From NCBI GenBank assembly GCA_947591215.1, contig CANQCZ010000001.1, positions 27,399 through 91,398 on the forward strand: a stretch of DNA of 64,000 bases, written 5' to 3'. The notes under the pieces are model-generated. The model searched no databases, was not told the DNA's origin, and saw nothing but the letters and a program-made list of their open reading frames with translations. Shown here in pieces: positions 47,423 through 63,544 of the stretch (position 1 is the stretch's first letter; every line of letters starts with the position of its first letter). A program made the translations under genes and the position numbers. This DNA comes from an uncultured Bacilli bacterium. Lineage in GTDB: Bacteria > Bacillota_I > Bacilli_A > RFN20 > CAG-449.

Positions 47423-50400
47423 TTATATTCTTACAAAAGTGAAATTATTGACGATTAGTGCTTGAGAGACCTCTATTTTAAGATTGTGCTTGCCGTAAAA
47501 ATGCAAGGCGGCACCTTTGACATTGACATTATCGTCTTTAGGAATTTCTAGAATATCGATAAGAGATCCTTTATCATCAAATAGTTTAATATATAAATTT
47601 TCATCGGTAGGATTGATAACATTTAATGCTAAGTGATAAGTTGTATTTTCTTTAAAATACAAACAGAAAGAATATGATATCATTCCGTTATCATTTTGAA
47701 TTGTTTGGGCTTCAGTAAATGATATCGTGCTTTCAGCATCTAGTCTTTCATGAATTGTTCCCGATTTATAAGGATCGACACGACAAATGGTGTGAGGTGC
47801 GACACTGATAGTCGAAATTGCATTTCCATCCTTATAAAATGTCACATCTTTTATTGTAGATGATAAGTTGTTAATGATTGAAACAGTTTCACCATCTTTT
47901 GTATAAGTCGATGAGGGTAATCCGCTAGAATAGATTTCTTTAGATCTAGTGCCTAGGGATTTAAAAGCGTGAATCAAGTAATAGACATTGAATAATTCAG
48001 TGGAATTTTGAATCTCGTCTAATCTTGTTTGGAGCCGCTCTAAGGCGCTATCAGGATCAAAAAGGGCAAGAATTACCCAATAGATATGCTGATACCCATC
48101 TTCGGCTTGATGTCCGGTCCAATTTTCTTCTTCTTTGATGTAATCTTCATAAAGCGAAGCTAGTTTTTCTTTTTCAGTTTCTCCAAGAGCATAAGAACTT
48201 AAATATTCACCTCCGGGCAAAAGGTGAATTCCGTAAATGTAAGTAGGGTCACCATTGAAGAAGGTACCGTAGAAGTTACTTCCACCGTAAATTTGACCGA
48301 CGCCGTGATAAGGATAATCATCGCTGTAAGAGTCCTCATCATAGTTAAACCAGTATTGTTTAATGCTTGATAATTCTGTGACATAACAATATATCGCAGC
48401 ATCTTGCATTTCTTGATTGTCGGTCACTTGACTATAAAGATAAGCGGCTTGATATGAATTCAAAGCCTCGGAAGCCGATTCTTGATTGTTGCCACCATCT
48501 GAATCAGCATAACCTCCAGCCCAAGAATGACCGGCATAATAATCAAAGTTGCGGAAATCACAAAAAGTTGATGTATCATCGGTATAGTTGAGATAATCGA
48601 GAATTAAAAAATCCGCCATCGGTTGATAATCTTGCTTGAAGGTTTCATCAAAACTGAAGCATACCATCGTAGCAAAAGCAAAATACCCGTACGTGAAATG
48701 ATGATCGGCAATCGCAGTATTGGCGCCAAATTCACTGGCGCGATAATATAAAGTGCCCCATTCATTGTCGTAATAAAAATAATATCGATCATTTGGCCCA
48801 GAATAAGTGTACCAATCACTTAAAATGTTCTTGAGACGTTCTAAATATTGATTTCGTAAATCGATATAACCTAAATTATCGGCAATCAAAATACCATTAG
48901 CTAACGGATGTAAACTTTTACCTTGCCAATAGGCATCTTCTCCTAAAAGATTGTTTTGAGTATCACGTAAAAGCTTTTCAAGATATTGGCGCATAATGTC
49001 TTTTGAATATGTCGTATCGAAGGGTTCGTCGGGAATTGCCGCGATTCCGTAAAATTGATCGGTGGTCACAAATGAACTACCTTCAACCACATGAAGATCG
49101 CCACGGACCGATTTGTAAAAAACATCAGAGTACAAAGTGGTGGCTTTTTTTCTTTGATGCGGCAACATCACTACTTTTGATTCTTGATGTAAGTCGCTTT
49201 GAAAATAATCGTGATAATAATAAGTGGTAGTCACTTTAGAAGTGTCATCTACTTTGTAATTGACGGTGCTTCTTAAAATGGCATCCAATGAAGATCGATA
49301 ATAACTTTCAATATCACTGCCACTTTCTAATGGACATATCGACAAATAATTATTTTGAAGGTCAATTGAAAGTCCACCTTCCTCACGGGTAAAAGTAGCC
49401 ATTTTGGAAGTAGAAATCAAATATTGGCGATCTTCGTAAACTTCTTGTTGCAGTCCATTGTTATTTTTATAACCGGTAAGAGAAGAAAGGGAGATAACAG
49501 CGTATAAAGTTTCAACACTTTCGCCATTATTAAGGATTCTAGTTCCATCGCTCACGATAGCGTCATCTTTGAAAGTGATTTTCGCTTTTTTATCTGCGAA
49601 AAAGGAACTGATAAAAGGCGAACCTTGTGAAAAATAATTGACCATTTTATCAGCAGTGGTATCTGAAAAAGAAACTCCGAAAGTCATATCCGAATCATCA
49701 ATTAAAGCAGTGGAAGTTTCTTGAAGTTCGCAATTTGGAAATAGCGTCAAATCGATCGTATTTGTGACCGTTTGACTACGATTGTAAGTCGTCTCGAAAT
49801 AACCTTCGCCGGGATAAGAGATTCCTAATCCGTTTGAAGTATATTTTACTCTTAAAGGATATAAGTACATCGCATGACCGAAATTGTTGATTAACAATGA
49901 TTGATAAATTCCGTTTGACGGAACGGCTCCGTCTTTTTGACGATCGTCATAAGCGATGTAACGGGCGGTAGGAAAGTAAATGTCATCTTTGGCGTAACTG
50001 CCTTTCCCTAAAGTCGTAGTCGAGATTGTTGGAAGATCTTTGATATTAAAAGAATATGGTTTTGTCAAAGGATTGATTGAATGAACGACGATACTTTCTA
50101 AGCGATGGCGATACATGGAATTTTTTGAATACTCTGTAATTTTAATAAAACGGGTATTGCAAGAAAGACTGACATTTTGTAAAGCCGTGGCTCCATGCAG
50201 TTCTCGATAACGCAAAGTATATTTGATACCATCTTCCGATACTTCGATATCGTAAATTTTTCCGTAGTTGGTTTCAAACAAAAGGTCGATTTCACCGACG
50301 TCTTTAACGCTTCCAAGATCGATAATTAAACTATCTTGTTGTTCGTCTCGATAATCGCTAGCCCAAAAATTCCCGTAGTTGTTTTTGGCAAGTTCCGGAC

Positions 50401-51631
50401 GATGTTCTTCTTTAAACGATGAAGCGGAAAAAACACATCCGTCAAGAGACACTTCTTCATCATTGTTATAAATTTTTATTTCTGATACTCGGTAACAATA
50501 AGATTTTAAAGGTCGAGATATGAATTCATAACGTACCTTAGTGAAACTTGAAAGAGCAAAATTGACATTGCTTCCGTTACCGAGATAAACTTCGTGATAA
50601 GCATTGTTTGAAAAAAGTGAAATGCGGTAGCTAGAAGGACCAAGATCATAGAAAGAAGTGTTGATTCTTGTAGCGGACACGGAAGTATTAAAATCTAATT
50701 CTAAGTACTGCTCATCAGCGATCACTTTTTCATCGAATAAATCAGGGTACATGTTTTTGGGAATCGCTAAACCGCGTTTCCCATATATTTCAATTTCATA
50801 GATTGAAAAACCATAGGCGCTATACGATTTGTCCATCAGACAAAATCGAACATAACGACCTTTTCCGTTGATGGTTTGATCATCGATTCTTGCCCCGTAA
50901 CTTCCTTCAAAAGAAGCTAAATCCGTAAACGATCGATTATCTTCAGACACAGCAATCGTGTAGTGTTTACTAGAAGCATTTTCCCAGTTGATTACGATTC
51001 TTTCAAATGAAAGAGAGGCGCCTAAGTCGATTGTGACATAGGATATATCTTCTTCCCATGGACTTTCATAACGCGTGGCGCTATCACCGTCAACTAAAAA
51101 ACTTGGAGAATTATTATCACGATAAGTTCCGTATGCTTTAGCACCGGTTGAAATTACATAAGCCGTGTCGGATTCATAAATATACGGCTCTTCTTTTTTA
51201 CCATATTGATCATCTTTTATTACTGTAACTTTTCGAGTTTTACTAGTAACTTTTCCTTCGTCTTCTAAAGTATATTTAATTTCATAGATACCGGGAGTAC
51301 CATAATCGATATTGCCGCTTACCTTGATTTTAGGCGTGATATCTTCACCTTGAACACTAAAACCTTTTATATCTTTTAACGGCGAGAAAAAAACGCCTTG
51401 CATGATCGAGATATCATCAATATTGGTGATTATCGGTTTTTCTTCCAGTGTAGGTGAACTAGTACTAGAAGTACTAGAGGAGGCATTATCACTTGAAGCT
51501 TCACTACCTGTAGAAGATGACACGTCATTGTTTGATGAGTGATTGAAGAAGGAGAAACAAATTCCTACAGATAGAGCGATAATCACTGCTAAAGAAGAGA
51601 AAATTATCGATTTTCGCAAGGTGTTTTTCAT
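47423..51631 (-). CDS. Secreted GH81-family endo-beta-1,3-glucanase with N-terminal F5/8 type C (discoidin/CBM32-like) modules, 1402 aa
   Basis: Signal/anchor MKNTLRKSIIFSSLAVIIALSVG. F5/8 type C pattern (…DGDSATRYESPWEEDISYVTIDLG…YEIEIYG). GH81 signatures IADHHFTYGYF (DHHFHYGY box), RNFDYYAGHSWAGG and QESASEAL (ESxSEA catalytic Glu pair). Confidence 0.8.
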   Translation of the reverse strand: MKNTLRKSIIFSSLAVIIALSVGICFSFFNHSSNNDVSSSTGSEASSDNASSSTSSTSSPTLEEKPIITNIDDISIMQGVFFSPLKDIKGFSVQGEDITPKIKVSGNIDYGTPGIYEIKYTLEDEGKVTSKTRKVTVIKDDQYGKKEEPYIYESDTAYVISTGAKAYGTYRDNNSPSFLVDGDSATRYESPWEEDISYVTIDLGASLSFERIVINWENASSKHYTIAVSEDNRSFTDLASFEGSYGARIDDQTINGKGRYVRFCLMDKSYSAYGFSIYEIEIYGKRGLAIPKNMYPDLFDEKVIADEQYLELDFNTSVSATRINTSFYDLGPSSYRISLFSNNAYHEVYLGNGSNVNFALSSFTKVRYEFISRPLKSYCYRVSEIKIYNNDEEVSLDGCVFSASSFKEEHRPELAKNNYGNFWASDYRDEQQDSLIIDLGSVKDVGEIDLLFETNYGKIYDIEVSEDGIKYTLRYRELHGATALQNVSLSCNTRFIKITEYSKNSMYRHRLESIVVHSINPLTKPYSFNIKDLPTISTTTLGKGSYAKDDIYFPTARYIAYDDRQKDGAVPSNGIYQSLLINNFGHAMYLYPLRVKYTSNGLGISYPGEGYFETTYNRSQTVTNTIDLTLFPNCELQETSTALIDDSDMTFGVSFSDTTADKMVNYFSQGSPFISSFFADKKAKITFKDDAIVSDGTRILNNGESVETLYAVISLSSLTGYKNNNGLQQEVYEDRQYLISTSKMATFTREEGGLSIDLQNNYLSICPLESGSDIESYYRSSLDAILRSTVNYKVDDTSKVTTTYYYHDYFQSDLHQESKVVMLPHQRKKATTLYSDVFYKSVRGDLHVVEGSSFVTTDQFYGIAAIPDEPFDTTYSKDIMRQYLEKLLRDTQNNLLGEDAYWQGKSLHPLANGILIADNLGYIDLRNQYLERLKNILSDWYTYSGPNDRYYFYYDNEWGTLYYRASEFGANTAIADHHFTYGYFAFATMVCFSFDETFKQDYQPMADFLILDYLNYTDDTSTFCDFRNFDYYAGHSWAGGYADSDGGNNQESASEALNSYQAAYLYSQVTDNQEMQDAAIYCYVTELSSIKQYWFNYDEDSYSDDYPYHGVGQIYGGSNFYGTFFNGDPTYIYGIHLLPGGEYLSSYALGETEKEKLASLYEDYIKEEENWTGHQAEDGYQHIYWVILALFDPDSALERLQTRLDEIQNSTELFNVYYLIHAFKSLGTRSKEIYSSGLPSSTYTKDGETVSIINNLSSTIKDVTFYKDGNAISTISVAPHTICRVDPYKSGTIHERLDAESTISFTEAQTIQNDNGMISYSFCLYFKENTTYHLALNVINPTDENLYIKLFDDKGSLIDILEIPKDDNVNVKGAALHFYGKHNLKIEVSQALIVNNFTFVRI

Positions 51632-51640
51632 AAAACCAAA

Positions 51641-53779
51641 TTATTCTTCAGCGACAGTATAAGCAAAACTATCGGTCAATGGATAAAAATAAGAATCTTC
51701 ACGATCGCTATTTTCAACGGCAATCAATTTGACGCTAAAGCGATATGAACCACTTGAAAGACCTAAATCTTTTAAAGCTTTTTCAATATCTTTTTTATAG
51801 GTAAATTGAGTTCCGTTACGATAATCAACGATAAAGGATCCTAAAGCTTTTTCTTCTGTGGCTTCGGTTTCATCATCGTTAAAAATATAAACTTCCATAT
51901 GATCTACAAAAGCAGCTTCAGGGTTAACACCATCCTTAAATATTTCCCATGGCCATATTAATCGACCGGTTTCACTATCAATTGAAATCTCGCCATAATT
52001 ATTTAAATGATAATCGACTTCATAAGTATAACTGCCATCGAGAATCACAAAGTCGCTTGAAGCATATAAACTATCTTCGCTTGCCACAAAACGCATTGCC
52101 ATTTTGATTTCGTGGGCTCCTTTAACATTATGGTCTTTTAATACTGTGAGGATATCGTCTTTGTCAATAAACCCGCTTTCAACAACCTCCATGATGGCTA
52201 TGGTTTCGGTTTCTTCACCGACAAATTCCAATTCGGCATCGTAAAGTCTGATTTCCAAATAAGCGACATCGCCGTTTTTCCATTCTTGATTTGCGGTAAT
52301 TAATTCCCAGCGGTAATCCAAATCACCATTATCCATAATGTTTGGTTGTGTACTATCGATTTCTAGCGGTGAAGAAAGTTTTAATTCTTCAATTGTAATC
52401 GACTTAGTTCCCGAGAAGGCTTCGTTAGTAACTTTACTGGTTCTTCCATCAGCGGTAACAAGTTCAATCATCAAGCGATATTCGATGGTTTGATTGGTGT
52501 AACCGGCTTCGCCTAATGCGCGATATAAAGCCTTTTGATCGATCGGTTGTCCGGTTTCAAAACTGGCAAGCGGCATTCCATAAAGCATGACTTGTCCGTT
52601 TTCAAAAGCGACATCATCATTACGATAAATCGTGGCTCTCCAATGATCGCGAAGGGCGAGAGCATCATTGCCGATAAAGCCGAAATTATCGTCTACTCCG
52701 ACAGCGCGACCATCGACCGGTTCAAGATATAAAGCGTCGGTTACTTTTTCATTACCATAGAAAATTTCAACGTCTTGTTGAATATTGGTGTAATAAAAAC
52801 CGTCTTCTCCGTTTAACGGAACTGATACATTGTTGAGTTTGACTTCAGGAGCTGCCTCAGACAATTTATCGCCTAAAATGTTTTCGCCATAAGCGTAAAT
52901 AAATAGGTGACCGACAGCATCTTGATCGTAAATTATTTGATGTTCAACACTTGAATTGATCACGATTTTTAACGCGTTGACTACTTCATCGACAGTGTTG
53001 TCTAATAATGATTCATAGTAATCTTTAGCATCGTTAATCAAAGTTTCGCGTTCCCCATCGGCCGCTTTAGTAACGTTAGAGACTAAAAGGGCAAAATATT
53101 CGCCGTCTTTTTTGCAAAGCAGATCGTAAGAATCTTTGACTTCTTCTAAAAGTTTATCGATATCTGAAAGAAGTTCATAGGCGCTTTTGGCTTCGTTAAT
53201 GAGAGTGAGCGAATCTTCTGAAACATTGCCGATTGATGCGACTTTTTCAACAAAAGCAGCGGCATTTTGCTTGTTTGCACCATGAATGTAAGTAACAGCT
53301 TGACTATAGGAAGATATTAAATGCTCTTCCGTTTCGTTAACACGAACTTCGAAAGTATTTTCGCCGTTTGTCAATAGGGAAGTGTCACTTAATATTTCAT
53401 AGTTATTCGATGTAACATCTTTCGTTTGTTCGCTATTGATGCGAATGCGATATCCATTTGTCGCACCGGTAACGGCATCCCATGTAAGCACATCGTCTTC
53501 GATTTTTACATTAGTCGGAATGTCAAAAGCAACACGAGTCGAACTACTGTGACTTTCAGAATCAGTACTGCTGGTTTGTTCGTTGCCGACGCTAGAAGTA
53601 GAAGCATCGATACTGGACTCTGAAGAGGTAATTTCAGGTTGTTCAGAAGTTTCATTGCTTGAAACCTGACTTGAAGGTTCTTCTTGAGATCCGCTAGAAG
53701 AAGGTTGCGGTTCGTTATTGGCACATCCGGCAATAGCTAAAAGGCCAATAAGCAATAAGGATAATTGACTTTTCTTCAT
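51641..53779 (-). CDS. Surface lipoprotein with a Ser/Thr-rich linker, unknown function (same operon as GH81)
   Basis: RBS AAAGGAG. Lipobox LLAIAGC after MKKSQLSLLLIG. Long S/T/E-rich low-complexity linker, then about 600 aa of globular sequence. Confidence 0.65.
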   Translation of the reverse strand: MKKSQLSLLLIGLLAIAGCANNEPQPSSSGSQEEPSSQVSSNETSEQPEITSSESSIDASTSSVGNEQTSSTDSESHSSSTRVAFDIPTNVKIEDDVLTWDAVTGATNGYRIRINSEQTKDVTSNNYEILSDTSLLTNGENTFEVRVNETEEHLISSYSQAVTYIHGANKQNAAAFVEKVASIGNVSEDSLTLINEAKSAYELLSDIDKLLEEVKDSYDLLCKKDGEYFALLVSNVTKAADGERETLINDAKDYYESLLDNTVDEVVNALKIVINSSVEHQIIYDQDAVGHLFIYAYGENILGDKLSEAAPEVKLNNVSVPLNGEDGFYYTNIQQDVEIFYGNEKVTDALYLEPVDGRAVGVDDNFGFIGNDALALRDHWRATIYRNDDVAFENGQVMLYGMPLASFETGQPIDQKALYRALGEAGYTNQTIEYRLMIELVTADGRTSKVTNEAFSGTKSITIEELKLSSPLEIDSTQPNIMDNGDLDYRWELITANQEWKNGDVAYLEIRLYDAELEFVGEETETIAIMEVVESGFIDKDDILTVLKDHNVKGAHEIKMAMRFVASEDSLYASSDFVILDGSYTYEVDYHLNNYGEISIDSETGRLIWPWEIFKDGVNPEAAFVDHMEVYIFNDDETEATEEKALGSFIVDYRNGTQFTYKKDIEKALKDLGLSSGSYRFSVKLIAVENSDREDSYFYPLTDSFAYTVAEE

Positions 53780-53795
53780 ATTAACTCCTTTTTTG

Positions 53796-53811
53796 TGGAA
53801 ATCGATTTCCA
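53796..53811. promoter_or_regulatory. LacI-type operator, perfect 16-bp palindrome TGGAAATCGATTTCCA, abutting the RBS of the lipoprotein/GH81 operon
   Basis: Self-complementary with a central CG. Two near-identical copies occur at 57201-57216 and 57368-57383, each directly 5' of an RBS. Confidence 0.6.
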
Positions 53812-53903
53812 TACACATTTATATTAACATAAAGCGCTTACAATGTCAAAAATAAAAAAAGGCAAATGCAGGCTTTTTAAATCGAAGTTAAGTGATAAGA
53901 AAA

Positions 53904-54923
53904 TCAATGACTTGGTTTATCGATCGAAGGGGTAAAAATCAACTCGGATTGAATGACCTTAATGCTTTTGGTTTTGTCATGACCTTTATTGTCAATTTGA
54001 TCGATCAATTCTTGCGCCAGTTGTTTGCCTAATAAATCGGTGTTTTGTTTAACCGTGGTAATCGAAGGGTGAATCGATCTTCCGATATCGGTGCCATCAA
54101 AACCGACGACGGAAATATCGTTTGGAACATTTAAACCCATTTCATCTATCGCGGCTAATCCGCCTAAAGAAGAATAATCGTCGGGATATAGGATCGCGGT
54201 TGGAGGATTGCTTTGTTTTAAAATTTTTAAAGTGGCCTCGTGATTGGCATTGACGTTATAATAACCGGTTTCAACAATCATATTGTCATTAAAAGGAATC
54301 GAGTTTTTACTTAAAGCATCTTTAAAACCTCTGATTCTTTCATCGGTGACAATATTTTTTTCGCCGTGTAAAAACACGATATTTTGATGTCCGAGTTCGA
54401 TTAATTTTTTGGTTAATTCAAAGTATTTTTCATAAGAATCGCTAGTTACACCGCATATTTTAGTTCCGATATAGTCAAATCCGACTTTTGGAATTGAAGA
54501 AAGCATCAGCAATTCTTTTACTTCTTCTTTATAATAATTTCCAAAAATCAAAATACCGTCAACTCTTCTTTTTTCGATGTGGCTTAAATAAGAATAAGTT
54601 CCATCTTTGGATTTTGTCTTAGTGAGCAATATTAAATCATAGCCTTCTTTTTGAATTACTTCTTGAAAAGAATTCAATATGTTCATTAAAAGCAATTGAT
54701 TAGTGCCAACGCGGCCGTCTAAAGCGAAGATCACACCGATTGAGTATGATTTTGAAGTACGCAAAGAGCGCGCTGCAGTATTGGGATGGTAACCCATCTC
54801 TTTGGCAACAGCGATAATTTTTTTCTTAGATGCTTCATTGACTCCGTTGTAATTATTTAATGCTTTGCTTACAGTAGCCGGAGCGAAGCCGCTTTTTTTT
54901 GCAATGTCATAAATTGTAGCCAT
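53904..54923 (-). CDS. LacI-family transcriptional regulator
   Basis: N-terminal HTH MATIYDIAKKSGFAPATVSKALNNYNGV…TAARSLRT plus a periplasmic-binding-protein-type sugar-binding domain. Confidence 0.85.
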   Translation of the reverse strand: MATIYDIAKKSGFAPATVSKALNNYNGVNEASKKKIIAVAKEMGYHPNTAARSLRTSKSYSIGVIFALDGRVGTNQLLLMNILNSFQEVIQKEGYDLILLTKTKSKDGTYSYLSHIEKRRVDGILIFGNYYKEEVKELLMLSSIPKVGFDYIGTKICGVTSDSYEKYFELTKKLIELGHQNIVFLHGEKNIVTDERIRGFKDALSKNSIPFNDNMIVETGYYNVNANHEATLKILKQSNPPTAILYPDDYSSLGGLAAIDEMGLNVPNDISVVGFDGTDIGRSIHPSITTVKQNTDLLGKQLAQELIDQIDNKGHDKTKSIKVIQSELIFTPSIDKPSH

Positions 54924-55039
54924 GTAAACTTAACTCCCAAGCATAATTGCTTAATTCATCGCTAATTTAGAATGTTATCATAATCAGTTAATGTTTTTCA
55001 ATAACTCTGTATTGTAAAAAGTTGAACATAGGAACAAAA

Positions 55040-55067
55040 ATCCTTTTAAGGAGAGCCTTAAAAGGAT
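55040..55067. terminator. Bidirectional rho-independent terminator
   Basis: ATCCTTTTAAGG-AGAG-CCTTAAAAGGAT 12-bp stem with T-runs on both sides. Ends the minus-strand operon upstream of lacI. Confidence 0.8.
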
Positions 55068-55075
55068 TAGTATTT

Positions 55076-55303
55076 TTAAACTATTTCTCCCCAATCAAAT
55101 GAGTCATCTTCATTATTTTGTTTGCTTTCAAAAGTATTTTTATTACTTGAAGAAGATTCTTCTTCACTTTGAAGAGAACTAAAATGTTCATTGGAAGTAA
55201 CGTTAGATTCTAAGCTAGTCGTTTGATTAGGTTTTGAATCGTTATTGGTACAACCAAACAATAAAACTGCTGTTAATATCGAAAAAATAACTAGTTTTTT
55301 CAT
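55076..55303 (-). CDS. Small lipoprotein (75 aa)
   Basis: MKKLVIFSILTAVLLFGC lipobox. Ser/Asn-rich. Overlaps the upstream gene stop (ATGA). Confidence 0.5.
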   Translation of the reverse strand: MKKLVIFSILTAVLLFGCTNNDSKPNQTTSLESNVTSNEHFSSLQSEEESSSSNKNTFESKQNNEDDSFDWGEIV

Positions 55304-57030
55304 TCTGCTCTAGATAAAGCTCCATTTTCATAATTATAAGTTATCGTTTGATATTGAAGATCATTGACTTTTAAAGTAATTTCATAAGTTCCGTCTAAAA
55401 TACCAATTAAAGTGAAAGAGAAGAAGTAATAATTACCTTCAGTATCTTCAGCCATAATATCATCGGCATTTAATGTAACGTCTAATACTCCATTTAAACT
55501 TGTTGTAAGAGTTTTATAGTAATTATTGATTGAAACTTTCCGTGGACCAAATGTTTTATCACCTTTATAAGTTAACTCTAATACTACATCATCAGAATAA
55601 GTGTTTACATCTTCGATTCTAGCAAGACCAATAAAACGAATGGCTTTAGCATTATCACTTTTGCCTACTTGAGCACCATATAATAAATGATCTGAAGGTG
55701 TAAATGCTTCAATTTCGTATAAGTTATAACCCCAATCGCCGTAAACTTCTTCCCTAGCTTCGACGGTTTGTAACAATACATATCTTGCTAAAATAGGTTG
55801 ATCTAAACTTATGTTATCGGTATGAATTGCTTCTTCACATTTTACATTTTGAAATAAAGTCCAATCACTCCAAGTTTCACTCGAATCAGTAATATATTCA
55901 AAAGATTCAAGATCATCTATTTGGTTTGTAGAGACAAAAATATTATATTCAGTTGGACAAGCTCTTTCCCAATAAATATTCATTTTATCTAAAGCATATA
56001 TCTGATCAAGATCCCAAATATAATAAGTGTCTTTTTGTTGATTTTCTTTTATTTGAAATCCATCAGTAGTTGTACCATTAGTATAAACTTTTGGATCAGT
56101 AGGATTTGTCGTAGAATAAACCTCTTTATTAAAAAGTACATTGTTACCACTTGTTGAATTTTTATCGATACTTGAAAGATATTCAAGACGATAATATCCA
56201 TTGTATTCAGAACTCTTATCATTAGTTAAAGGAATAAAATTTTCATGATTTCTAAAAGAGAATTGCAATTTGTAAGTACCACTTGTTTCAATGTTTATTA
56301 TAGCAAATTCTCTTCTTTTCTCAAAATCCTTTTCCTTATTGCCATCTTCTTGTGTACTTAATAAATATAATCTAAATTCACCTTTGGAGAACTTATATTC
56401 TATGGAGTAGATTTCATCATCTAACTTGAGCATTGTGTTTGCATCAAAGTCCCAATTTTTTTCTGTCGCTCCACCAAATATATAAACATTGTAATCTTTT
56501 GAATTAATATATTCTATATTATAAGTATAACTAATTTCTTCTCCTGCAAGATTAGTAACGATATAATAGTCACTATTTAAATAACCTTCTACTTTAGCAA
56601 GATATCGGATAGCGACTTTTACAGTACTGGATGAAGGATAATTTGCGGATTTTAAAGCCCCTATAATATCACCAGGAAGAACATTACCTTGATTTTCTCG
56701 AACTATTGTGGCATATGTACCATCTTCTGAAAAGGTTTCACTTGCAAGAAAAAATTTGATTTCTAACGAAGCAATATCTTTTACTAAAATTTCTGTATCA
56801 CCGTATTTTTTGTATACACTAGTTAAATATTCATAAGCAAGTTCTAGTTCACCATTTTCATGGAATCCTTGATTGGGTGATGGCGTAGCAACCACGTTTG
56901 GTGTTGATAATTTTTCTTTTTCTTCAGCGGCTTCCACAATAGGAATATTATCACCATTGTACTTTGAGTTGAGAGTCAACATTCCCATTGATGAAAAAGC
57001 AATAAGTAAAGTTACTAATAATCTTTTCAT
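55300..57030 (-). CDS. Secreted protein with a C-terminal F5/8 type C (discoidin) domain
   Basis: Signal peptide MKRLLVTLLIAFSSMGML. …WSDWTLFQ…ARYVLLQTVE…GYNLYEIEAF discoidin pattern. RBS AGGAGGA. Confidence 0.65.
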   Translation of the reverse strand: MKRLLVTLLIAFSSMGMLTLNSKYNGDNIPIVEAAEEKEKLSTPNVVATPSPNQGFHENGELELAYEYLTSVYKKYGDTEILVKDIASLEIKFFLASETFSEDGTYATIVRENQGNVLPGDIIGALKSANYPSSSTVKVAIRYLAKVEGYLNSDYYIVTNLAGEEISYTYNIEYINSKDYNVYIFGGATEKNWDFDANTMLKLDDEIYSIEYKFSKGEFRLYLLSTQEDGNKEKDFEKRREFAIINIETSGTYKLQFSFRNHENFIPLTNDKSSEYNGYYRLEYLSSIDKNSTSGNNVLFNKEVYSTTNPTDPKVYTNGTTTDGFQIKENQQKDTYYIWDLDQIYALDKMNIYWERACPTEYNIFVSTNQIDDLESFEYITDSSETWSDWTLFQNVKCEEAIHTDNISLDQPILARYVLLQTVEAREEVYGDWGYNLYEIEAFTPSDHLLYGAQVGKSDNAKAIRFIGLARIEDVNTYSDDVVLELTYKGDKTFGPRKVSINNYYKTLTTSLNGVLDVTLNADDIMAEDTEGNYYFFSFTLIGILDGTYEITLKVNDLQYQTITYNYENGALSRAE

Positions 57031-57042
57031 TTTCTTTTCCTC

Positions 57043-57186
57043 CTAGTTAGTTGATTCAAATACTTCGCCCCAGAAGTCATCCCAATTATAGATGTCTCCT
57101 TCACCTTTATCTAAAAGCGAGGCGAGAATAATATCGTTAATGCAGATATTATCGATTTTAAGAGTAGGTTTTTGATAAGTCTTCAT
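57043..57186 (-). CDS. Small ORF (47 aa) with a strong RBS, first gene of the minus-strand operon
   Basis: GGGAGGT is 6 nt before the ATG. MKTYQKPTLKIDNICINDIILASLLDKGEGDIYNWDDFWGEVFESTN. Its stop overlaps the RBS of the next gene. Too short for the ORF track. Confidence 0.4.
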   Translation of the reverse strand: MKTYQKPTLKIDNICINDIILASLLDKGEGDIYNWDDFWGEVFESTN

Positions 57187-57200
57187 CTAATTACCTCCCA

Positions 57201-57216
57201 TGGAAAACGATTTCCA
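57201..57216. promoter_or_regulatory. LacI-type operator copy 2, TGGAAAACGATTTCCA
   Basis: 15/16 match to the palindrome at 53796. Lies just 5' of the RBS of the 57186 operon (minus strand). Confidence 0.55.
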
Positions 57217-57367
57217 TATTTACCATAAGTATACTGACAAAGTTAATCGTATGTCAACAACAAGAAGAAATTATTTTTTACAAAGTAAGCGATTACAATG
57301 GCAATGAAACCGATTTCATTTTATTATTGACAATTTTTGTTCTTCATTATATGATTAACATAGATAA

Positions 57368-57383
57368 AGGAAATCGATTTCTA
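57368..57383. promoter_or_regulatory. LacI-type operator copy 3, AGGAAATCGATTTCTA
   Basis: 14/16 match. Lies 7 nt 5' of RBS AAAGGAG of the ABC substrate-binding protein gene. Confidence 0.5.
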
Positions 57384-57407
57384 TCAAACGAAAGGAGATA
57401 TCTTAAA

Positions 57408-58844
57408 ATGAAGAAGTTGAAACTAATTCCATTTTTGGCACTGGCGGTCGCTACGACATTGACTGCTTGTGGTGGTGGAAGAGAACGTCCACGTGAAGGC
57501 GGCTTCCTCAGCATCGTCGCTTATAATGGTGGCTACGGTGATGAATGGTTACAAGCAATTGCCCAAGAATTTACTAATCAAACCGGAACCAGAGTCGAAT
57601 TTGAAACGGACTCTTTGATTCTTGAAAAGATCGACGAACAATTGACCGGCGTTAGCAATTACGATATTTACATGTCACATGGTCTCAATTGGCAAAACTA
57701 CGCTTCGCGTGGTTTATTAGCTAATCTTGATGATTTATATGACACGGTCGTCGATGAAAGCACCGGTAAAAAATTTGTGGATCGTTTTTCTAACGGAGCG
57801 CCTGAATTGAGTCGTTATAAAAATGAAAACGGGGAAGAACATTATTATAAAGTTAACTGGACTCAAGGTGCCGGAGGATTGGTTTATAACTCTTCAATGT
57901 TTGAAAAATATGGTTGGGAAGTACCGACCACCTATGATGAATTGGTTACGTTATGTTCAAAGATAGTTTCGGATACTAATGGAACGGTAACACCGTTTGT
58001 TTGGGCCGGCGGTCCAAATTCCAGAGACTACTATTGGGATTATGTAATATATGAATGGTGGGCTGAACTAGAAGGGGTTGAAAACTTCAATAAGTGGATG
58101 ACTTTCCAAAGCGATGACGGAACTTATAGTAATAGTTATGAAAACTTCAATCCCGATGGTCGTGGCGCTAACTTTAAAAAAGCATTTAAAATGTGGCACG
58201 ATTTAATCGCAAAAAATCCACAATACTCAAATAGTGAACCATATGGTACCAGTTTATCGACCGCACAAACTGATTTCTATTTGGAAAAGGCGGCCATGAT
58301 TCCATATGGACAATGGGCCAAAAGAGAAATTCAACAGATGTTAAAAGCCGATTTCACATTCGACGTTAAGTTTATGAGAACACCACGCGTCAGTGCTGAA
58401 AGCGATTATTATAATTTCATGGTCGGATTTGGAGATTCGATTCTTATTCCGGAAAATTCACCAAGCAAAGATCTCGCTAAGGAATTTATCCTTTTCTTAC
58501 AGACCGAATGGGCTTGTAAAAAATTCGTCGAATTGTCGGAAGGACCATTCCTTGCCTTCGATTACAGTTCCTTCGACATGAGCGATTTAGCGGCGAAAGA
58601 TAAATACATCGCTTCGATGATTGAAATATTGGGCGATTCTGTGAACATTTCTAATGCGACTAATTCGCCATTAGTTATCGCTAATGGTGATACTGATGTC
58701 TGCTGCTGGATCAATAATACCCGTTATTACAATGATGCGATGCTTGATCCGGTTGCCTACAGCGTTGATCGAGTAATGAACGACGTATACAATGCCGCTA
58801 AAGGATCTTGGGCTCGTTTCTGTAACGCAGCGATGGTGAGTTAA
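57408..58844 (+). CDS. ABC transporter extracellular solute-binding lipoprotein (family 1, carbohydrate)
   Basis: MKKLKLIPFLALAVATTLTACGGG lipobox, about 480 aa. RBS AAAGGAGA. Confidence 0.8.
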   Translation: MKKLKLIPFLALAVATTLTACGGGRERPREGGFLSIVAYNGGYGDEWLQAIAQEFTNQTGTRVEFETDSLILEKIDEQLTGVSNYDIYMSHGLNWQNYASRGLLANLDDLYDTVVDESTGKKFVDRFSNGAPELSRYKNENGEEHYYKVNWTQGAGGLVYNSSMFEKYGWEVPTTYDELVTLCSKIVSDTNGTVTPFVWAGGPNSRDYYWDYVIYEWWAELEGVENFNKWMTFQSDDGTYSNSYENFNPDGRGANFKKAFKMWHDLIAKNPQYSNSEPYGTSLSTAQTDFYLEKAAMIPYGQWAKREIQQMLKADFTFDVKFMRTPRVSAESDYYNFMVGFGDSILIPENSPSKDLAKEFILFLQTEWACKKFVELSEGPFLAFDYSSFDMSDLAAKDKYIASMIEILGDSVNISNATNSPLVIANGDTDVCCWINNTRYYNDAMLDPVAYSVDRVMNDVYNAAKGSWARFCNAAMVS

Positions 58845-58845
58845 T

Positions 58846-59778
58846 ATGAGCAGTGTCTTTGTAAAAAAAGAAAATGGAGTAAATGAAAAACGCAAGCGCA
58901 AATTTCCGCGTACTGCGTTTTTCGTTATTTTAATGCTGGCTTATCCGGTATTCCATTTTTGCTTGATGTGGTTTGGAGTAAACATCAATTCTATTCTATT
59001 GACGTTTCAATGGGTGCGAAATTCGCGTCTCGAATGGGTTCCGATGAATCAGTTGTTCTATAACTATAATAATTTATTTCAAGAATTTTCGGATCCTGTT
59101 ATATCAAATATGTATAAAGCGAGTTTAGTATACTTTGTCTTAAACTGCTTGATTACTTTGCCGATATCTTTATTATTTGCGTATTTTATCTTTAAAAAAA
59201 TATATGCAGCCGGTGCTTTTAAGGTCATCTTCTACTTGCCTTCGATTCTTCCGATCGTGGCTTTGACGCTCGTGTACAAAACCGCTTTTGAAAACAATGG
59301 ATTTTTAACTCCGATTTTCAACTTTTTCGGGCTTAAAAGTTCCACTTTCTTCATGGGTGATACGGCTCAATGGATGGTATGGATTTTCTGCTTTTGGACC
59401 GGTATTGGATACAATGTTATGATGCTTACTGCCGGAATGGCAAGAATTCCTCGGGATATTTTGGAGTCTTCTAAAATGGACGGAGTTCCGCCTTTAAAAG
59501 AGTTCGTCCATGTTATTATTCCGTTAACTTGGCCGACGATTACCACACTATTTATTTTCGGCATGATGGGTGTCTTTGGTACTTATTTACAACCGATGTT
59601 ATTGACGGCGGGGCAAAACAACACTAATACAATCGGATTACAAATTTTCCGTGAATCGACTAACGTCGCTAAAAACCATCCAGCGACGATTGGGTTATTT
59701 TGTACCATTATCGGTACCCCGATCGTGCTTGGAACTAGAGCTTTGCTCAATCACTTCTTTAAGGAGGTGAATTTCTAA
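58846..59778 (+). CDS. ABC sugar transporter permease (MalF/UgpA-type)
   Basis: 6 TM and an EAA-loop region …SSKMDGVPPLKEFVHVIIPL. Confidence 0.8.
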   Translation: MSSVFVKKENGVNEKRKRKFPRTAFFVILMLAYPVFHFCLMWFGVNINSILLTFQWVRNSRLEWVPMNQLFYNYNNLFQEFSDPVISNMYKASLVYFVLNCLITLPISLLFAYFIFKKIYAAGAFKVIFYLPSILPIVALTLVYKTAFENNGFLTPIFNFFGLKSSTFFMGDTAQWMVWIFCFWTGIGYNVMMLTAGMARIPRDILESSKMDGVPPLKEFVHVIIPLTWPTITTLFIFGMMGVFGTYLQPMLLTAGQNNTNTIGLQIFRESTNVAKNHPATIGLFCTIIGTPIVLGTRALLNHFFKEVNF

Positions 59779-60722
59779 TGTCTATCTCAACATTTTTTAA
59801 ACAAAAAGTCAAAGCCAAGAAAAATGCAATTCGCCAAAGCGATTATGAACGTAAAAACGATTTGCTTTATAAACGACATCGCGGCGAGAAAATTTTATTC
59901 GTATTTATGTTCATCATTTTCTTGTTCTTTGCAATCACTTATATTTATCCGTTTATTTGGGTTTTCTACAATTCTTTTAAAACGCGGATCAATTACGCTC
60001 AAGATTACATAGGTTTACCGACTTCGTGGACATTTGACAATTTCTTAGAAGCATTCACTTATTCGAGTTCGGAAACGCATTACTTCAATATTTTCCAAAT
60101 GCTCGGAATGTCTGTTCTTATTTGTTCGCTTGGCACTCTAGTGACAGTGTTTGTTTCAAGCTGTGCGGCCTATGTCGTTGCTAAATACGAATTTCCGGGT
60201 CGGAATGTCATTTTTTCAGTCGTCATTTTCTCGATGATAATTCCCATCGTCGGTTCGTTACCAAGTCAAATTCAATTGATGAAAAATCTCGGTTTGGACG
60301 GAACGATAATCGGCGTTATCTTCTTGTATAGCGGCGGTTTTGGAATGAATTTCATGCTGTTGTATTCATTCTTTAAGAATTTGTCGTGGACTTATGTAGA
60401 AGCGGCAAAAATCGATGGAGCATCCGATTTTAAAATCTTCTTCTCGATTATATTGCCGATGGCTAAAGGTCCAATCATTGCGATATCGGTAATTACCTTG
60501 ATTGGACAATGGAACGATTACATGACTCCGATGATTTATTTGCCGGATATGCCGACCATCGCTGTCGGTTTAAGGCTCCTTGCCGATCAAATGCAGCAAG
60601 AAGGGAACTACGTCTTGTTATTTTCAACGATAACTTTGGCGATTATTCCGATAATTTTAATGTTCTGTTTCTTTTCGAAAACGATTATGGAAAACACCTC
60701 AGTCGGTGGTTTGAAAGGTTAA
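59778..60722 (+). CDS. ABC sugar transporter permease (MalG/UgpE-type)
   Basis: EAA motif EAAKIDGASDFKIFFSIILPMAKGP. RBS AAGGAGG. Confidence 0.8.
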   Translation: MSISTFFKQKVKAKKNAIRQSDYERKNDLLYKRHRGEKILFVFMFIIFLFFAITYIYPFIWVFYNSFKTRINYAQDYIGLPTSWTFDNFLEAFTYSSSETHYFNIFQMLGMSVLICSLGTLVTVFVSSCAAYVVAKYEFPGRNVIFSVVIFSMIIPIVGSLPSQIQLMKNLGLDGTIIGVIFLYSGGFGMNFMLLYSFFKNLSWTYVEAAKIDGASDFKIFFSIILPMAKGPIIAISVITLIGQWNDYMTPMIYLPDMPTIAVGLRLLADQMQQEGNYVLLFSTITLAIIPIILMFCFFSKTIMENTSVGGLKG

Positions 60723-60741
60723 TAATAAAGGAGATAAAAAT

Positions 60742-62166
60742 ATGAAAACCTCAAAATTGATGATTCTATCCTTAAGTTTACTCTTAGTCGGAGTGACAAC
60801 CTTAAGCGGTTGTTCGCAAGGCAACAACGATGATGTTGACGAAAATAAAATTACACTTTCGATTTCAGGACCGACTTCAGTACAAGTCGGGGCCTCGATA
60901 AGATTAGTAATCGATATTACAAACGATGATAATCGTGACGGCTATACGATTGCTAGCAGCGATGATTCAGTGGCAACTGTCGATCAAAACGGAATCGTGA
61001 CCGGTGTTAAAGTTGGTACGGTTCAAATTACCGTCACTTCCAGAGCTGATGAAACGGTTATTAAAACATATATGGTCGATGTCATTGAATCGACGATTCC
61101 GACTCTCGATATCGAAGTTAACGTTGATAGTCCGTCTATAGTCGGACAAAAACCGATATTTACCGCGAAATTGCATAATCCTCAAAACTTCGATGTTAAA
61201 TATCATTGGTCAAATGAGTATGAAAAAGGGACTTTTATCGGTAATGGCGGAAGCGAACAAGAGTTTCATCCGACTTTAGCCGGAACCGAGATCATTCATC
61301 TTGAAGCGGAAGTGGGACCATATGTGTTAAGAGCACAAAAAAGCATCTATATCCGCGAAGATTATTCTACCGGATGGCAAGAGATCGGCACCAAAGCCGA
61401 ATTCCTGGCAGCGTTTAAAAATCGTGGTTCAGAACCGCTTGAAACTAAATATTATTTGACAAGCGACATCGATTTAGAAGGTGAAACCTTTGTGAGCAAT
61501 AACACCGTTTTTGCGGGTGTTTTGGATGGTCGCGGATACAAAGTTTATAATTTCAAAATCGAAAGTTCTGCAAGCGGTCATGCAAATGCCGGACTATTTT
61601 CGAAAATCACGATGCACCATGGACATCAAATTCCTCATTTTGGACAAAGTGGTATTGTTCGTAATCTCGGACTTGAATGTGAGATTCCGGAAAATGGCTC
61701 TGGATGGGGAACGGGAGCCTTGACGGCCGGTTGTGACGGATTGATTGAAAATTGTTACTTTAAAGTCAATCATTCGTTTGATACGGGAAAATGGGCCACT
61801 GAAGAAAACAATTATTATGTTCCTTTCTGTTCCGCGATCGCGGGTAATTTAGATGGCACTATTCGTGATGTCGTCGTTGAAATTGCCGATACCGAAGGCA
61901 AAAGCACAATTTATTCAGATGTCGCTTATCCAAATGGCGGTGACACTTTAATGACTAAACAAAACGCTAAAGTGACGAATCTTTACACCAATCAAGGCGC
62001 TTCGAATATCGGTGGTCAAGCTTACGAATATGGGGCACCGATCAAGGATTTAAGCACATACCATATCAATCTGAATTATGCCTCAACTAAAGCTTCCGAT
62101 TATAGCTTAAACGAAACTATTTGGAACTTAACCGATAATCAGATGCCGTCTTTAAAAAATATTTAA
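60742..62166 (+). CDS. Surface lipoprotein with a Big_2 (bacterial Ig-like) domain and a Cys-containing beta-rich domain
   Basis: Lipobox LSGC. …ASSDDSVATVDQNGIVTGVKVGTVQITV (Big_2). The C-terminal region is paralogous to the next gene (G.VRN…C…G…AG.C.G.IEN). Confidence 0.6.
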   Translation: MKTSKLMILSLSLLLVGVTTLSGCSQGNNDDVDENKITLSISGPTSVQVGASIRLVIDITNDDNRDGYTIASSDDSVATVDQNGIVTGVKVGTVQITVTSRADETVIKTYMVDVIESTIPTLDIEVNVDSPSIVGQKPIFTAKLHNPQNFDVKYHWSNEYEKGTFIGNGGSEQEFHPTLAGTEIIHLEAEVGPYVLRAQKSIYIREDYSTGWQEIGTKAEFLAAFKNRGSEPLETKYYLTSDIDLEGETFVSNNTVFAGVLDGRGYKVYNFKIESSASGHANAGLFSKITMHHGHQIPHFGQSGIVRNLGLECEIPENGSGWGTGALTAGCDGLIENCYFKVNHSFDTGKWATEENNYYVPFCSAIAGNLDGTIRDVVVEIADTEGKSTIYSDVAYPNGGDTLMTKQNAKVTNLYTNQGASNIGGQAYEYGAPIKDLSTYHINLNYASTKASDYSLNETIWNLTDNQMPSLKNI

Positions 62167-62188
62167 TGAAATTTAAGGACAAAAGAAT

Positions 62189-63544
62189 ATGAAGAAGAAA
62201 ATAATAACATCGCTATTATTAGCGGTATCAATGGTAAGTGGATGTGGTGCTTTAAGCGCGTGTGCTTCAAGCCCCAAAAATGTGTATTTAGAAAAGGGCG
62301 ATCGCTATTTTACGAAAACTCCTTATGTCGATCTTTCTAACATTCCCGAAAAGATTTCTTTTAAAGTGGATATTGAGGAAAATATTCTTGATATTTCAAT
62401 CGGAAGAATCTTAATTTACGAAGAAGATTTTGATTATCGAGACGGAATTCTTTCAATCAATAGCGATGTGCTGAAAGATGAAAACGGAAAGCTTTTAATC
62501 GCTTCCGGAGACAATCGCTTTGGCATTCGGGTTGAAGGAAGAATGATTTACCAAGATTGTTTTATGGTCGACAAGGTCATTAACACACCTGACGATTTAC
62601 AAGACATCAACAATCGTCCTATGGGTTCTTATATTTTAGGTAAAGATATCGATTTATCCGGGGTTTCTAATTTCGAACCTTTAGGATATTCAGAAAGTGA
62701 TTCTCACTACAATCAAGAATTCGGCGGTATCTTCGATGGTAATGGATTTGCAATTAAAAACATTTCAACCAAATATTCCTTGCACCCCGAAAGCACCGAA
62801 GAACAATATCATGGTCGTGGATACGTTTTTGAAGATGAATCTCATCGCGAAGGCACTGAATTTGGAGTATTCCAAAATATCGGACCTAGCGGTGTTGTGC
62901 GCAACGTTTCTTTCATGAATTGCGATATTGTCGGAAAGACGATAGTAGGGGTGGTTGCCGGAACTTGCAATGGCATTATTGAAAATGTCTTTGTTGACAA
63001 AGATTGTTCGGCGATTGCTTCGACTCACTTCTATGATGACGATTGCAATGTCGGCGGGATTGTCGGACTTCAAGGAAGCGGGGAAATACGGAACGTCATA
63101 AGTCTTGCCAAAGCGGAAATTTTACCGCAGTTTACCGATTTTGACGATGAAAGTTACGATAATCCTGAAACTGAAGATGTCGTTGAAGTTTCACACATTT
63201 TTTATAACGGTGAAAAGGGATGGACAGATTCAAACGGATTGATTACTACCGGTGTCTATGCCGGAATCGGCAAAAGCTGGGCGACAGCGTCAAATTGCGT
63301 TGCTTTAGCCTTCAATGAAGGTTCATATGGCATAAGACCATTTGGTCAAACGCATTTAGCGGCCAATAACTTTAATGGAAACAGCGGCAATGAAGATATG
63401 GGTCATTTCATCAATTGTGTGGTTAAAACCGAAGACGAAATGAAAAGCAGTAGCCTTTATTCCTCTTTCTCCACTGAAATATGGAATATTGTCGAGGGTG
63501 GAATTCCAACTTTCAGAAATCCATATCCGACAGCTATTTATTAA
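62189..63544 (+). CDS. Surface lipoprotein, paralogue of the preceding gene
   Basis: Lipobox VSGCGALSAC. Shared motifs FGG.FDG.G…N, GVVRNVSFMNCDIVG…VAGTCNGIIENV. Confidence 0.6.
   Translation: MKKKIITSLLLAVSMVSGCGALSACASSPKNVYLEKGDRYFTKTPYVDLSNIPEKISFKVDIEENILDISIGRILIYEEDFDYRDGILSINSDVLKDENGKLLIASGDNRFGIRVEGRMIYQDCFMVDKVINTPDDLQDINNRPMGSYILGKDIDLSGVSNFEPLGYSESDSHYNQEFGGIFDGNGFAIKNISTKYSLHPESTEEQYHGRGYVFEDESHREGTEFGVFQNIGPSGVVRNVSFMNCDIVGKTIVGVVAGTCNGIIENVFVDKDCSAIASTHFYDDDCNVGGIVGLQGSGEIRNVISLAKAEILPQFTDFDDESYDNPETEDVVEVSHIFYNGEKGWTDSNGLITTGVYAGIGKSWATASNCVALAFNEGSYGIRPFGQTHLAANNFNGNSGNEDMGHFINCVVKTEDEMKSSSLYSSFSTEIWNIVEGGIPTFRNPYPTAIY

Follow-up and report, generated by a model that had tools for sequence, protein, structure and literature searches.

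A probable LacI-repressed beta-1,3-glucan utilization locus in an uncultured lineage of gut Bacilli

A 64-kb stretch of contig CANQCZ010000001.1 from an uncultured low-GC Bacilli bacterium of the rabbit gut (contig positions 27,399 to 91,398; the whole stretch is referred to here as the window) carries a locus that very likely serves the utilization of beta-1,3-glucan of the laminarin, callose, or fungal-wall type and that is organized in three sigma-70-type transcription units, all probably repressed by a LacI-family regulator encoded within it. The main analysis was carried out on this window, in which the locus was followed from position 47423. Gene families were assigned with Pfam using curated cutoffs and with NCBIfam, and structural relatives were sought by phmmer searches of the Protein Data Bank (PDB). 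All nine open reading frames (ORFs) listed in an initial annotation of this DNA are present at the same positions. A Gram-positive polysaccharide utilization locus is defined by the co-location of one or more polysaccharide-degrading enzymes, a carbohydrate transporter, and a transcriptional regulator. The initial annotation had described the locus in these terms, and the description holds: the genes for a glycoside hydrolase family 81 (GH81) glucanase, an ATP-binding cassette (ABC) importer, and the LacI regulator lie within 16 kb, with GH161, GH16, and GH30 genes downstream.

The three best sigma-70 matches of the entire 17-kb region are the promoters of the three units, and the order of elements is alike at each: promoter, one palindrome at roughly +5 to +20, and ribosome binding site (RBS). 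Promoter P1 (53821 to 53849, minus strand; TTGACA, 17 nucleotides [nt], TAATAT, with a TG extension) precedes an operon of a 712-amino-acid (aa) lipoprotein and the GH81 enzyme. P2 (57228 to 57257, minus strand; TTGACA, 18 nt, TATACT; 11 of 12 consensus positions) precedes a small ORF and two secreted-protein genes, and P3 (57327 to 57355, plus strand; TTGACA, 17 nt, TATGAT; likewise 11 of 12) precedes the transporter operon. The candidate operator O1, TGGAAATCGATTTCCA (53796 to 53811), occupies approximately +6 to +21 of P1, 7 nt upstream of a GGAG RBS; O2, TGGAAAACGATTTCCA (57201 to 57216), lies at approximately +5 to +20 of P2, directly upstream of a GGGAGG RBS; and O3, AGGAAATCGATTTCTA (57368 to 57383), lies at approximately +6 to +21 of P3, 9 nt upstream of an AGGAG RBS. 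These are exactly the three 16-mers that had been proposed as operators immediately 5' of the RBS of three units, and their positions are both borne out and phylogenetically conserved. The real start of the 712-aa lipoprotein gene is the ATG at 53779, with GGAG ahead of it, and the palindrome at 53796 therefore lies upstream of that gene and not within it. A TTG at 57327 was rejected as the start of the binding-protein gene, as it belongs to the −35 hexamer TTGACA of P3; the real start is the ATG at 57408.

The palindromes are strongly enriched at these promoters. A degenerate 16-mer pattern gave 6 strand matches where 0.85 would be expected, and none of 100 dinucleotide shuffles reached 6; the 12-nt core GAAANCGNTTTC occurs in 4 perfect copies in the 64 kb against an expectation of 0.24, a count again reached by none of 100 shuffles. 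All four perfect cores fall within the two promoter regions. The three 16-bp palindromes and the one 14-bp box are both enriched and conserved, and they have the form of LacI/GalR operators, which are palindromes of 14 to 20 bp with a central CG. An inverted-repeat search of the two promoter regions returned none, loop-less 8+8 palindromes being below its search settings.

When genomes were scanned with the LacI protein, three close relatives emerged, all of them metagenome-assembled genomes of uncultured Bacilli from rabbit ("Lapin") gut, with LacI proteins 98% (L003), 96% (L001), and 70% (L002) identical to that of the window. A locus from a further species, L207, was found by way of the 712-aa protein. 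The full gene order of the window, including the lipoprotein-GH81 pair, is present in three species of the clade (L002, L003, and L207); L001 spans the locus in part, and the transporter operon comes from L081, a contig of the same assembly that is about 96% identical to the window in DNA sequence. More distant loci (L076, L078, L084, L085, and L086) were recognized by members of a 451-aa lipoprotein family 34 to 44% identical to that of the window. Distant LacI relatives (38% identity or less; Lachnospiraceae, Treponema, and Halobacillus) were dropped as nonorthologous, since they have none of the other locus genes beyond weak generic ABC-permease matches.

In L002 and L207 the palindromes persist at the same three promoters, where much of the noncoding DNA is unalignable. 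O1 is kept in L001, L003, L002, and L207, and both hexamers of P1 are invariant in L002. O2 forms part of an identical 18-mer in L003 and L002 amid otherwise unalignable sequence and is also present in L207, the palindrome ahead of the small ORF reading TGGAAAACGATTTCCA in L002 and TGGAAATCGTTTTCCA in L207. P3 is kept in L002 and L003. In L002 and L207 the site preceding the binding-protein gene reads (A/T)AGAAATCGATTTCT, and the lipoprotein-GH81 operon is preceded by (T/A)AGAAATCGATTTCC. The operator core of the distant loci stands ahead of the binding-protein gene and of divergent glucanase or discoidin genes, often as three sites with a spacing of 57 to 70 bp, and over the approximately 190 kb of related loci no perfect core falls outside a promoter region of a locus of this kind. 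Orthologues of the LacI protein, compared between six loci, are 32 to 41% identical overall, and their helix-turn-helix (HTH) signature, TIYDIA..P.TVSK..N.Y, is invariant, which fits a conserved target site. Together these comparisons are good phylogenetic-footprint evidence, though not proof, that the palindromes are operators of the locus LacI, and we consider it likely that this protein binds boxes of the GGAAANCGATTTCC class.

The regulator itself (339 aa; 53904 to 54923, minus strand) has the domains that the initial annotation had implied, with both the HTH and the periplasmic-binding-protein-like effector domain above cutoff (PF00356, 51.9 bits against a cutoff of 27, E value of 6.3e-14; PF13377, Peripla_BP_3, 98.7 bits, 4.9e-28; PF00532, 72.8 bits). 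It reached no equivalog cutoff in NCBIfam. The possibility that this protein is CcpA was rejected, since it scored 145.6 bits with TIGR01481 against a cutoff of 442. A candidate promoter of its gene (54972 to 55001, minus strand; TTGAAA, 18 nt, TAACAT) is weak, with 9 of 12 consensus positions. Between the LacI gene and a 75-aa lipoprotein gene, a hairpin with a 13-bp stem (55039 to 55068), terminator-like in both directions, sets the P2 unit apart from the LacI gene.

The promoters also carry boxes resembling the catabolite-responsive element (cre), none of them noted in the initial annotation. The box TGTAAGCGCTTTA (53830 to 53842, minus strand) lies within the −35/−10 spacer of P1 and is invariant in L001, L002, and L003; the cre-like pattern that includes it has 2 matches against 0.23 expected. 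The box AGTAAGCGATTACA (TGTAATCGCTTACT on the minus strand; 57284 to 57297) stands in the middle of the divergent region, and TGAAACCGATTTCA, a TGAACCGATTTCA-type box (57305 to 57318), lies 9 nt upstream of the −35 hexamer of P3, where it aligns with TGAAAGCGATTACA in L002 and TGTAATCGCTTTCT in L207. Compared with the cre consensus TGWAANCGNTNWCA, the 57305 box is a perfect match, as it is to the operator core, whereas the 57284 box has one mismatch and the 53830 box has two; the window contains no ccpA gene. Cre-like boxes recur in L002, L078, L084, and L207, often overlapping the −35 hexamer, and TTGACA-NCGCTTACA overlaps are found in L078, L084, and L207. At P3 the cre-like box and the operator are 64 bp apart from center to center, or about six helical turns. 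These boxes may be CcpA sites that add catabolite repression, or they may be auxiliary operators for looping.

The 1,402-aa surface protein of the P1 operon (47423 to 51631, minus strand) had been assigned to GH81, and the Pfam search bore this out. Its C-terminal GH81 domain (Glyco_hydro81C, PF17652) scored 139.2 bits against a cutoff of 25.6 (2.7e-40), and the catalytic region matched CtLam81A (6fop) with an E value of 1.7e-68 and BH0236 with an E value of 7e-51 over about 520 residues. In the alignment, the motifs ADHHFTYGYF and NNQESASEA stand opposite NDHHFHYGYF and NNQESSSEA of BH0236, position by position; the Asp of DHHF and the Glu pair of ESxSE are the catalytic residues in published GH81 structures. 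From these matches the protein is predicted to hydrolyze beta-1,3-glucan. NCBIfam gave it no name. From its N terminus it comprises a signal or anchor segment, a Ser-rich linker, an Ig-like domain (Bact_surface_Ig-like, 2.2e-10), at least two discoidin (F5/8C, CBM32-like) modules (F5_F8_type_C, 2.1e-24 in two stretches), the GH81 catalytic region, and a C-terminal beta-sandwich. The discoidin modules are nearest to the chitosan-binding DD modules (CBM32 type) of a Paenibacillus glucanase/chitosanase (2rva and 4zz5; E value of about 6e-11). CtLam81A (6fop) and BhGH81/BH0236 (5t49) share the homologous catalytic region and the DHHF and ESxSE motifs, whereas the window protein is about twice as long and adds the Ig-like domain, the discoidin modules, and a membrane anchor. 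CtLam81A reportedly carries a dockerin, and BH0236 is said to carry CBM6 and CBM56 modules. In L002 a second, shorter GH81 gene (983 aa; 17463 to 20414, minus strand) is convergent with that of the 1,396-aa GH81.

Downstream of P3 on the plus strand are the genes for the lipoprotein solute-binding component of a CUT1-type sugar importer (57408 to 58844; SBP_bac_1, 1.3e-19) and for two permeases, one MalF/UgpA-like (58846 to 59778) and one MalG/UgpE-like (59778 to 60722), both identified as BPD_transp_1 by Pfam. The binding protein has a weak likeness, under the NCBIfam cutoffs, to the NgcE and CPR_0540 families. The initial annotation had reported a CUT1 importer with no ATPase gene. The importer stands, with its binding protein and both permeases in the window, but the missing ATPase does not: in L081 a MalK-type ATPase gene (ABC_tran, OB_MalK, and TOBE_2) lies approximately 4.5 kb past the point corresponding to the window end, and the apparent lack is, by comparison with that strain, an artifact of the window edge. 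The same is true of the 3' boundary that had been set at 63544. The plus-strand operon runs on: 28 bases past the stop codon of the 451-aa lipoprotein gene, an RBS is followed by the ATG at 63573 of a gene for a cytoplasmic GH161 beta-1,3-glucan phosphorylase, of which the window holds the 5' end (63573 to 64000). The full locus, as gauged with strain L081, measures approximately 25 kb.

The 142 GH161 codons in the window are 99% identical to the N terminus of a 1,031-aa protein of L081, which in turn matches PDB entry 9qqk ("GH161A") over residues 8 to 1030 with an E value of 1.6e-197. A one-mismatch copy of the operator core (TAAAACGTTTTC; 63629 to 63640) in the first 70 nt of this coding sequence, also found in L003, is probably due to chance. 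In L081 the operon continues after GH161 with a lipoprotein combining Big_2 and GH16 domains, the MalK-type ATPase, three membrane or unknown proteins, and a GH30 enzyme. The best PDB matches of the GH16 protein, which has a lipobox, are all laminarinases (E value of about 1e-44); the GH30 enzyme has no signal peptide and is closest to the SrfJ/glucosylceramidase type. The three consecutive small genes between the ATPase and GH30 genes (L081, 12357 to 14296; about 160, 215, and 275 aa) are found also in L076, L078, L084, and L085. The encoded proteins, of which at least two are clear membrane proteins, have no Pfam family; they may be an unrecognized transporter or sensor component.

The initial annotation had described the locus as built around a giant GH81 glucanase, a description that does not extend to the distant loci. 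L076, L078, L084, L085, and L086 share a core consisting of the binding protein, two permeases, one or more lipoproteins including one of the 451-aa type, a GH161-like protein of about 1,040 aa, GH16, a MalK-type ATPase, the three small membrane proteins, GH30, and LacI, and none of the five contains a GH81 gene. GH81, together with its lipoprotein partner, occurs in the window's clade alone. It is therefore, on this comparison of gene content, an accessory module added in one clade and not the center of the system.

What was observed directly is the gene content, the family assignments, and the positions and conservation of the motifs; from these we infer the substrate, the inducer, the binding of LacI to the boxes, and what the lipoproteins do. 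We propose that outside the cell the membrane-anchored GH81 enzyme, held on the substrate by its discoidin modules, and the lipoprotein GH16 laminarinase encoded just past the window would cut beta-1,3-glucan to oligosaccharides, with capture aided by the 712-aa FN3-repeat protein, a variable 576-aa discoidin-like protein, and two beta-helix lipoproteins. The lipoprotein binding protein and the two permeases, powered by the downstream MalK-type ATPase, would import the oligosaccharides, which in the cytoplasm would undergo phosphorolysis by GH161 to glucose-1-phosphate, with the GH30_1-like beta-glucosidase completing the conversion to glucose. When no substrate is present, a LacI dimer on (A/T)GGAAANCGATTTC(C/T)(A/T), at about +5 to +20 of each promoter, would block transcription until released by an imported oligosaccharide, plausibly laminaribiose or laminaritriose. 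The cre-like boxes, which overlap the −35 hexamers or lie just upstream of them, would probably mediate CcpA-type catabolite repression or act as auxiliary operators.

Several points weigh against this reading. Its regulation, substrate, and biochemistry are deduced from sequence comparison, and the GH16, ATPase, and GH30 genes were read in the ~96% identical strain L081, beyond the window. The N-terminal beta-sandwich of GH81 (PF03639) has no Pfam match in the 1,402-aa protein and aligns with the N-domains of 6fop and 5v1w at 1 to 2 bits, with about 190 residues upstream of the matched region available for such a domain. The binding protein has no close characterized relative; its PDB matches are all remote sugar binders, and its ligand specificity therefore cannot be deduced from them. 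On the regulatory side, no GAAANCGNTTTC-like site was found ahead of the LacI gene (54924 to 55075), and the window, of which positions 1 to 32700 are occupied by housekeeping genes (PriA, IF-2, RNase J, Trp-tRNA synthetase, a HAD phosphatase, and an ABC/FtsX fusion), contains no further catabolic operon as a control for operator and cre specificity. The operator core also agrees with 12 of the 14 positions of the cre consensus, and CcpA could therefore be the binder. The GGAAANCGATTTCC palindromes would then be cre sites of this lineage serving global catabolite repression, with the local LacI acting on TGTAAGCGNTTAC-type boxes or elsewhere. The perfect fit of the 57305 box to both motifs is in keeping with this, and a position downstream of the start site, as a roadblock, is common for cre sites. 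Moreover, local LacI proteins can have cre-like binding sites, which are not easily distinguished from cre by sequence (PMC5483248). However, in the best copies of the palindrome the outermost T-G...C-A of cre is replaced by G-G...C-C, boxes nearer to canonical cre (TGTAAGCGCTGTCA and TGACACCGCTTACA) coexist at the same promoters, each locus examined pairs the motif with a LacI orthologue whose reading head is invariant, and the motif has no copy in the remainder of the window or in DNA flanking the related loci. We therefore regard CcpA as a rather improbable owner of these sites and retain the locus LacI as their likely ligand.

That the palindromes are chance or RNA-hairpin elements ahead of constitutive genes is extremely unlikely. 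The 16-mer does occur in many unrelated metagenomic contigs, but the shuffled sequences never reached the observed count, the sites keep their place with respect to promoter and RBS from species to species amid diverging flanks, and an 8+8 palindrome without a loop would form at most a weak hairpin. An exact-match scan of metagenome contigs with TGGAAANCGATTTCCA gave at least 120 single-copy matches from all kinds of environments; among the matches listed, no contig contained a homologue of the locus genes and five matches were near unrelated LacI genes, so that the scan is uninformative for the regulon. One of these contigs, L122, has the same 16-mer (5311 to 5326) 30 nt ahead of the gene for a LacI homologue, and in four further metagenome loci, from other taxa, it adjoins unrelated LacI genes; this type of palindrome is therefore generic to the LacI family. 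A different question is whether the substrate is other or broader than laminarin or curdlan, namely, the whole fungal wall (beta-1,3/1,6-glucan with chitosan) or mixed-linkage cereal glucan. The likeness of the GH81 discoidin modules to chitosan-binding modules would suit such a substrate, as would the weak similarity of the binding protein to the chitobiose binder NgcE, the GH30 and SKN1/KRE6-like GH16 signatures in related loci, and the herbivore-gut habitat. GH81, laminarinase-type GH16, and GH161, however, point first to beta-1,3 linkages, the GH30 enzyme is a cytoplasmic one of the beta-glucosidase type and not a secreted GH30_3 beta-1,6-glucanase, and no chitinase or chitosanase is present at the locus. 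A broader substrate thus seems unlikely to us, and utilization of beta-1,3-glucan is the reading that we carry forward.

The accessory surface proteins are the least familiar part of the locus. The 712-aa lipoprotein (51641 to 53779, minus strand), the first gene product of the GH81 operon, has the lipobox IAGC and a Ser/Thr/Glu linker and no Pfam match. Its predicted model (predicted local distance difference test score of 91) comprises an FN3 domain, a helical bundle, a beta-sandwich, and three repeated modules, and apart from FN3 gave no informative fold match. The protein is confined to a handful of lineages, and one of its modules recurs at the N terminus of the 576-aa protein of the P2 unit; a PDB sequence search with either protein found no match. 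The 712-aa lipoprotein is probably a noncatalytic surface protein.

The two lipoproteins encoded after the permeases had been described as paralogous Big_2/Cys-repeat proteins. The paralogy is remote but real (BLASTP E value of 3e-7; 97.9% in an hhalign comparison of the 474-aa beta-helix with the 451-aa family profile), whereas Big_2 is found in only one of them, and the "Cys-repeat" is a ...NC... motif that recurs on the rungs of a parallel beta-helix. The 474-aa protein (60742 to 62166, plus strand) combines Big_2 (2.6e-11) with a C-terminal parallel beta-helix, and the 451-aa protein (62189 to 63544, plus strand) has a beta-sandwich and a parallel beta-helix. The latter belongs to a family of at least 140 homologues that has neither a name nor a Pfam family; its members occupy the same slot in every related locus examined, always between the permease genes and GH161, and share invariant Asp, His, and Cys positions, including the motif THFYDDDCN. 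Matches of the beta-helix lipoproteins to M26_N and GLUG (PF05342 and PF07581) were below the Pfam threshold. Compared with BACOVA_03286 (3n6z) and the N-terminal beta-helix of M26 IgA1 protease (7uvk and 7jgj), the window lipoproteins score below the Pfam thresholds, lack a protease domain, and stand in a context of carbohydrate uptake. NCBIfam gave no name to the lipoproteins or to the small ORF of the P2 unit, and a literature search found no relevant paper on the unnamed lipoprotein family. None of the accessory lipoproteins resembles a known enzyme, and surface capture of substrate is an economical guess at their function. We tentatively raise the idea, which may well prove wrong, that the two beta-helix lipoproteins form a new class with a function linked to the import of beta-1,3-glucan in low-GC or wall-less Bacilli, either as the ABC-transporter counterpart of SusE/F-type surface glycan-capture proteins or as an undescribed beta-helix glucanase family.

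The P2 unit contains two genes absent from the initial annotation. The first of its genes, between the operator at 57201 and the 576-aa gene, is a 47-aa acidic ORF without a signal peptide and without a family match (57043 to 57186, minus strand). The pattern M-K-x-Y-x-x-P ... D-x-F is conserved in its counterparts in L001, L003, L002, and L084, and L207 has a 42-aa gene in this slot; in L001, L002, L003, L084, and L207 such an acidic ORF of 42 to 48 aa always immediately precedes the discoidin-like gene and itself follows an operator. The last is a 75-aa Ser/Thr-rich mini-lipoprotein gene with the lipobox LFGC (55076 to 55303, minus strand), whose product is 93% identical in L001; in L084 and L207 this slot is taken by a gene of 75 or 95 aa. 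Between them lies the gene for the 576-aa secreted protein (55300 to 57030, minus strand), which had been annotated as a discoidin-domain protein; an F5/8C signal was found, but at 23 bits it is below the cutoff of 27.8. This protein is 73% identical to its counterpart in L001, 35% in L003 (688 aa), and 27% in L002, while its neighbors are 94 to 100% or 50 to 85% identical, and it is 36% identical to a 560-aa protein of L084. The region from 55120 to 57015, containing the 576-aa gene and the mini-lipoprotein gene, has no DNA match to L003 between flanks that are about 95% identical. The region is a hypervariable cassette, and the pattern suggests allelic replacement or diversifying selection on a surface protein.

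On the other side of the locus, the stop codon of the GH81 gene is the exact insertion point of a 14.7-kb low-GC (25 to 30%) island (32728 to 47422). L003 and L207 lack it and have a YlbF-like 117-aa gene immediately next to GH81; L001 has part of the island. Its cargo consists of a 1,575-aa RHS/DUF6531 polymorphic toxin (36339 to 41066) and many small ORFs, which are probably immunity or orphan-toxin cassettes, and it contains repeats of about 170 nt at 40297 to 40472, 41614 to 41781, and 42470 to 42635. This block was rejected as a part of the locus and is regarded as an inserted RHS-toxin island.

Much of this system has precedents. In the account by Kuhaudomlarp et al. (2019; PMC6484121), as far as the parts available to us go, GH161 genes cluster with genes for ABC permeases, GH16, and GH30, GH3, or GH1 in Acholeplasma laidlawii and Paenibacillus, and the proposed order of events is extracellular endo-cleavage, import, and phosphorolysis. 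The window locus resembles the clusters described there in placing a cytoplasmic GH161 beside ABC permeases, a GH16 laminarinase, and a beta-glucosidase in low-GC or wall-less Bacilli; relative to those same descriptions it adds the GH81 operon, a locus LacI with mapped operator candidates, an in-operon MalK-type ATPase, the two beta-helix lipoproteins, and the module of small ORF, discoidin-like protein, and mini-lipoprotein. According to PMC5483248, which cites Newcomb et al., GlyR3 of Clostridium thermocellum is a LacI repressor whose binding site, close to the start of celC, is cre-like; laminaribiose releases the repressor from it. We liken the two regulators by the description of their systems and not by a sequence relationship: as in GlyR3-celC-licA, a LacI-family gene stands among beta-1,3-glucan-active genes with a cre-like palindrome near a transcription start. 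GlyR3 is described as autoregulated within its own operon and as having one main site, TGAACGCGCGTACA, whereas in the window the LacI gene lacks a box and each of three promoters has a GGAAANCGATTTCC box and a second cre-like box. Beta-glucan loci of Bacteroides, such as the laminarin locus of Bacteroides uniformis, encode SusC/D and SusE/F-like surface glycan-binding lipoproteins (PMC7553746). By functional analogy, these too appear to combine a surface endo-glucanase, accessory surface lipoproteins, a dedicated importer, and a local sensor or regulator; the window locus, unlike them, uses an ABC importer and not a TonB-dependent SusC/D system, its regulator is of a different type, and its beta-helix lipoproteins are not SusE/F homologues.

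LacI-controlled Gram-positive polysaccharide utilization loci, GH161 clusters, and laminaribiose-responsive LacI repressors are thus already known, and no current view is challenged here; some novelty attaches only to the family of unnamed beta-helix lipoproteins, to the module of small ORF and hypervariable discoidin-like gene, and to the clade-restricted 712-aa protein. If the beta-helix lipoproteins do form a new class, the module of small ORF, hypervariable discoidin-like protein, and mini-lipoprotein would be a strain-variable cassette for substrate recognition. The practical value is modest, consisting of better annotation of a recurrent type of locus and of a widespread lipoprotein family that is blank in databases. 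For this uncultured lineage of gut Bacilli, the locus provides a complete parts list for the use of beta-1,3-glucan (GH81, GH16, an ABC importer, GH161, and GH30), the sources of which include yeast and fungal walls, callose, and algal laminarin, and its conserved operator motif may be used for regulon prediction across related genomes.

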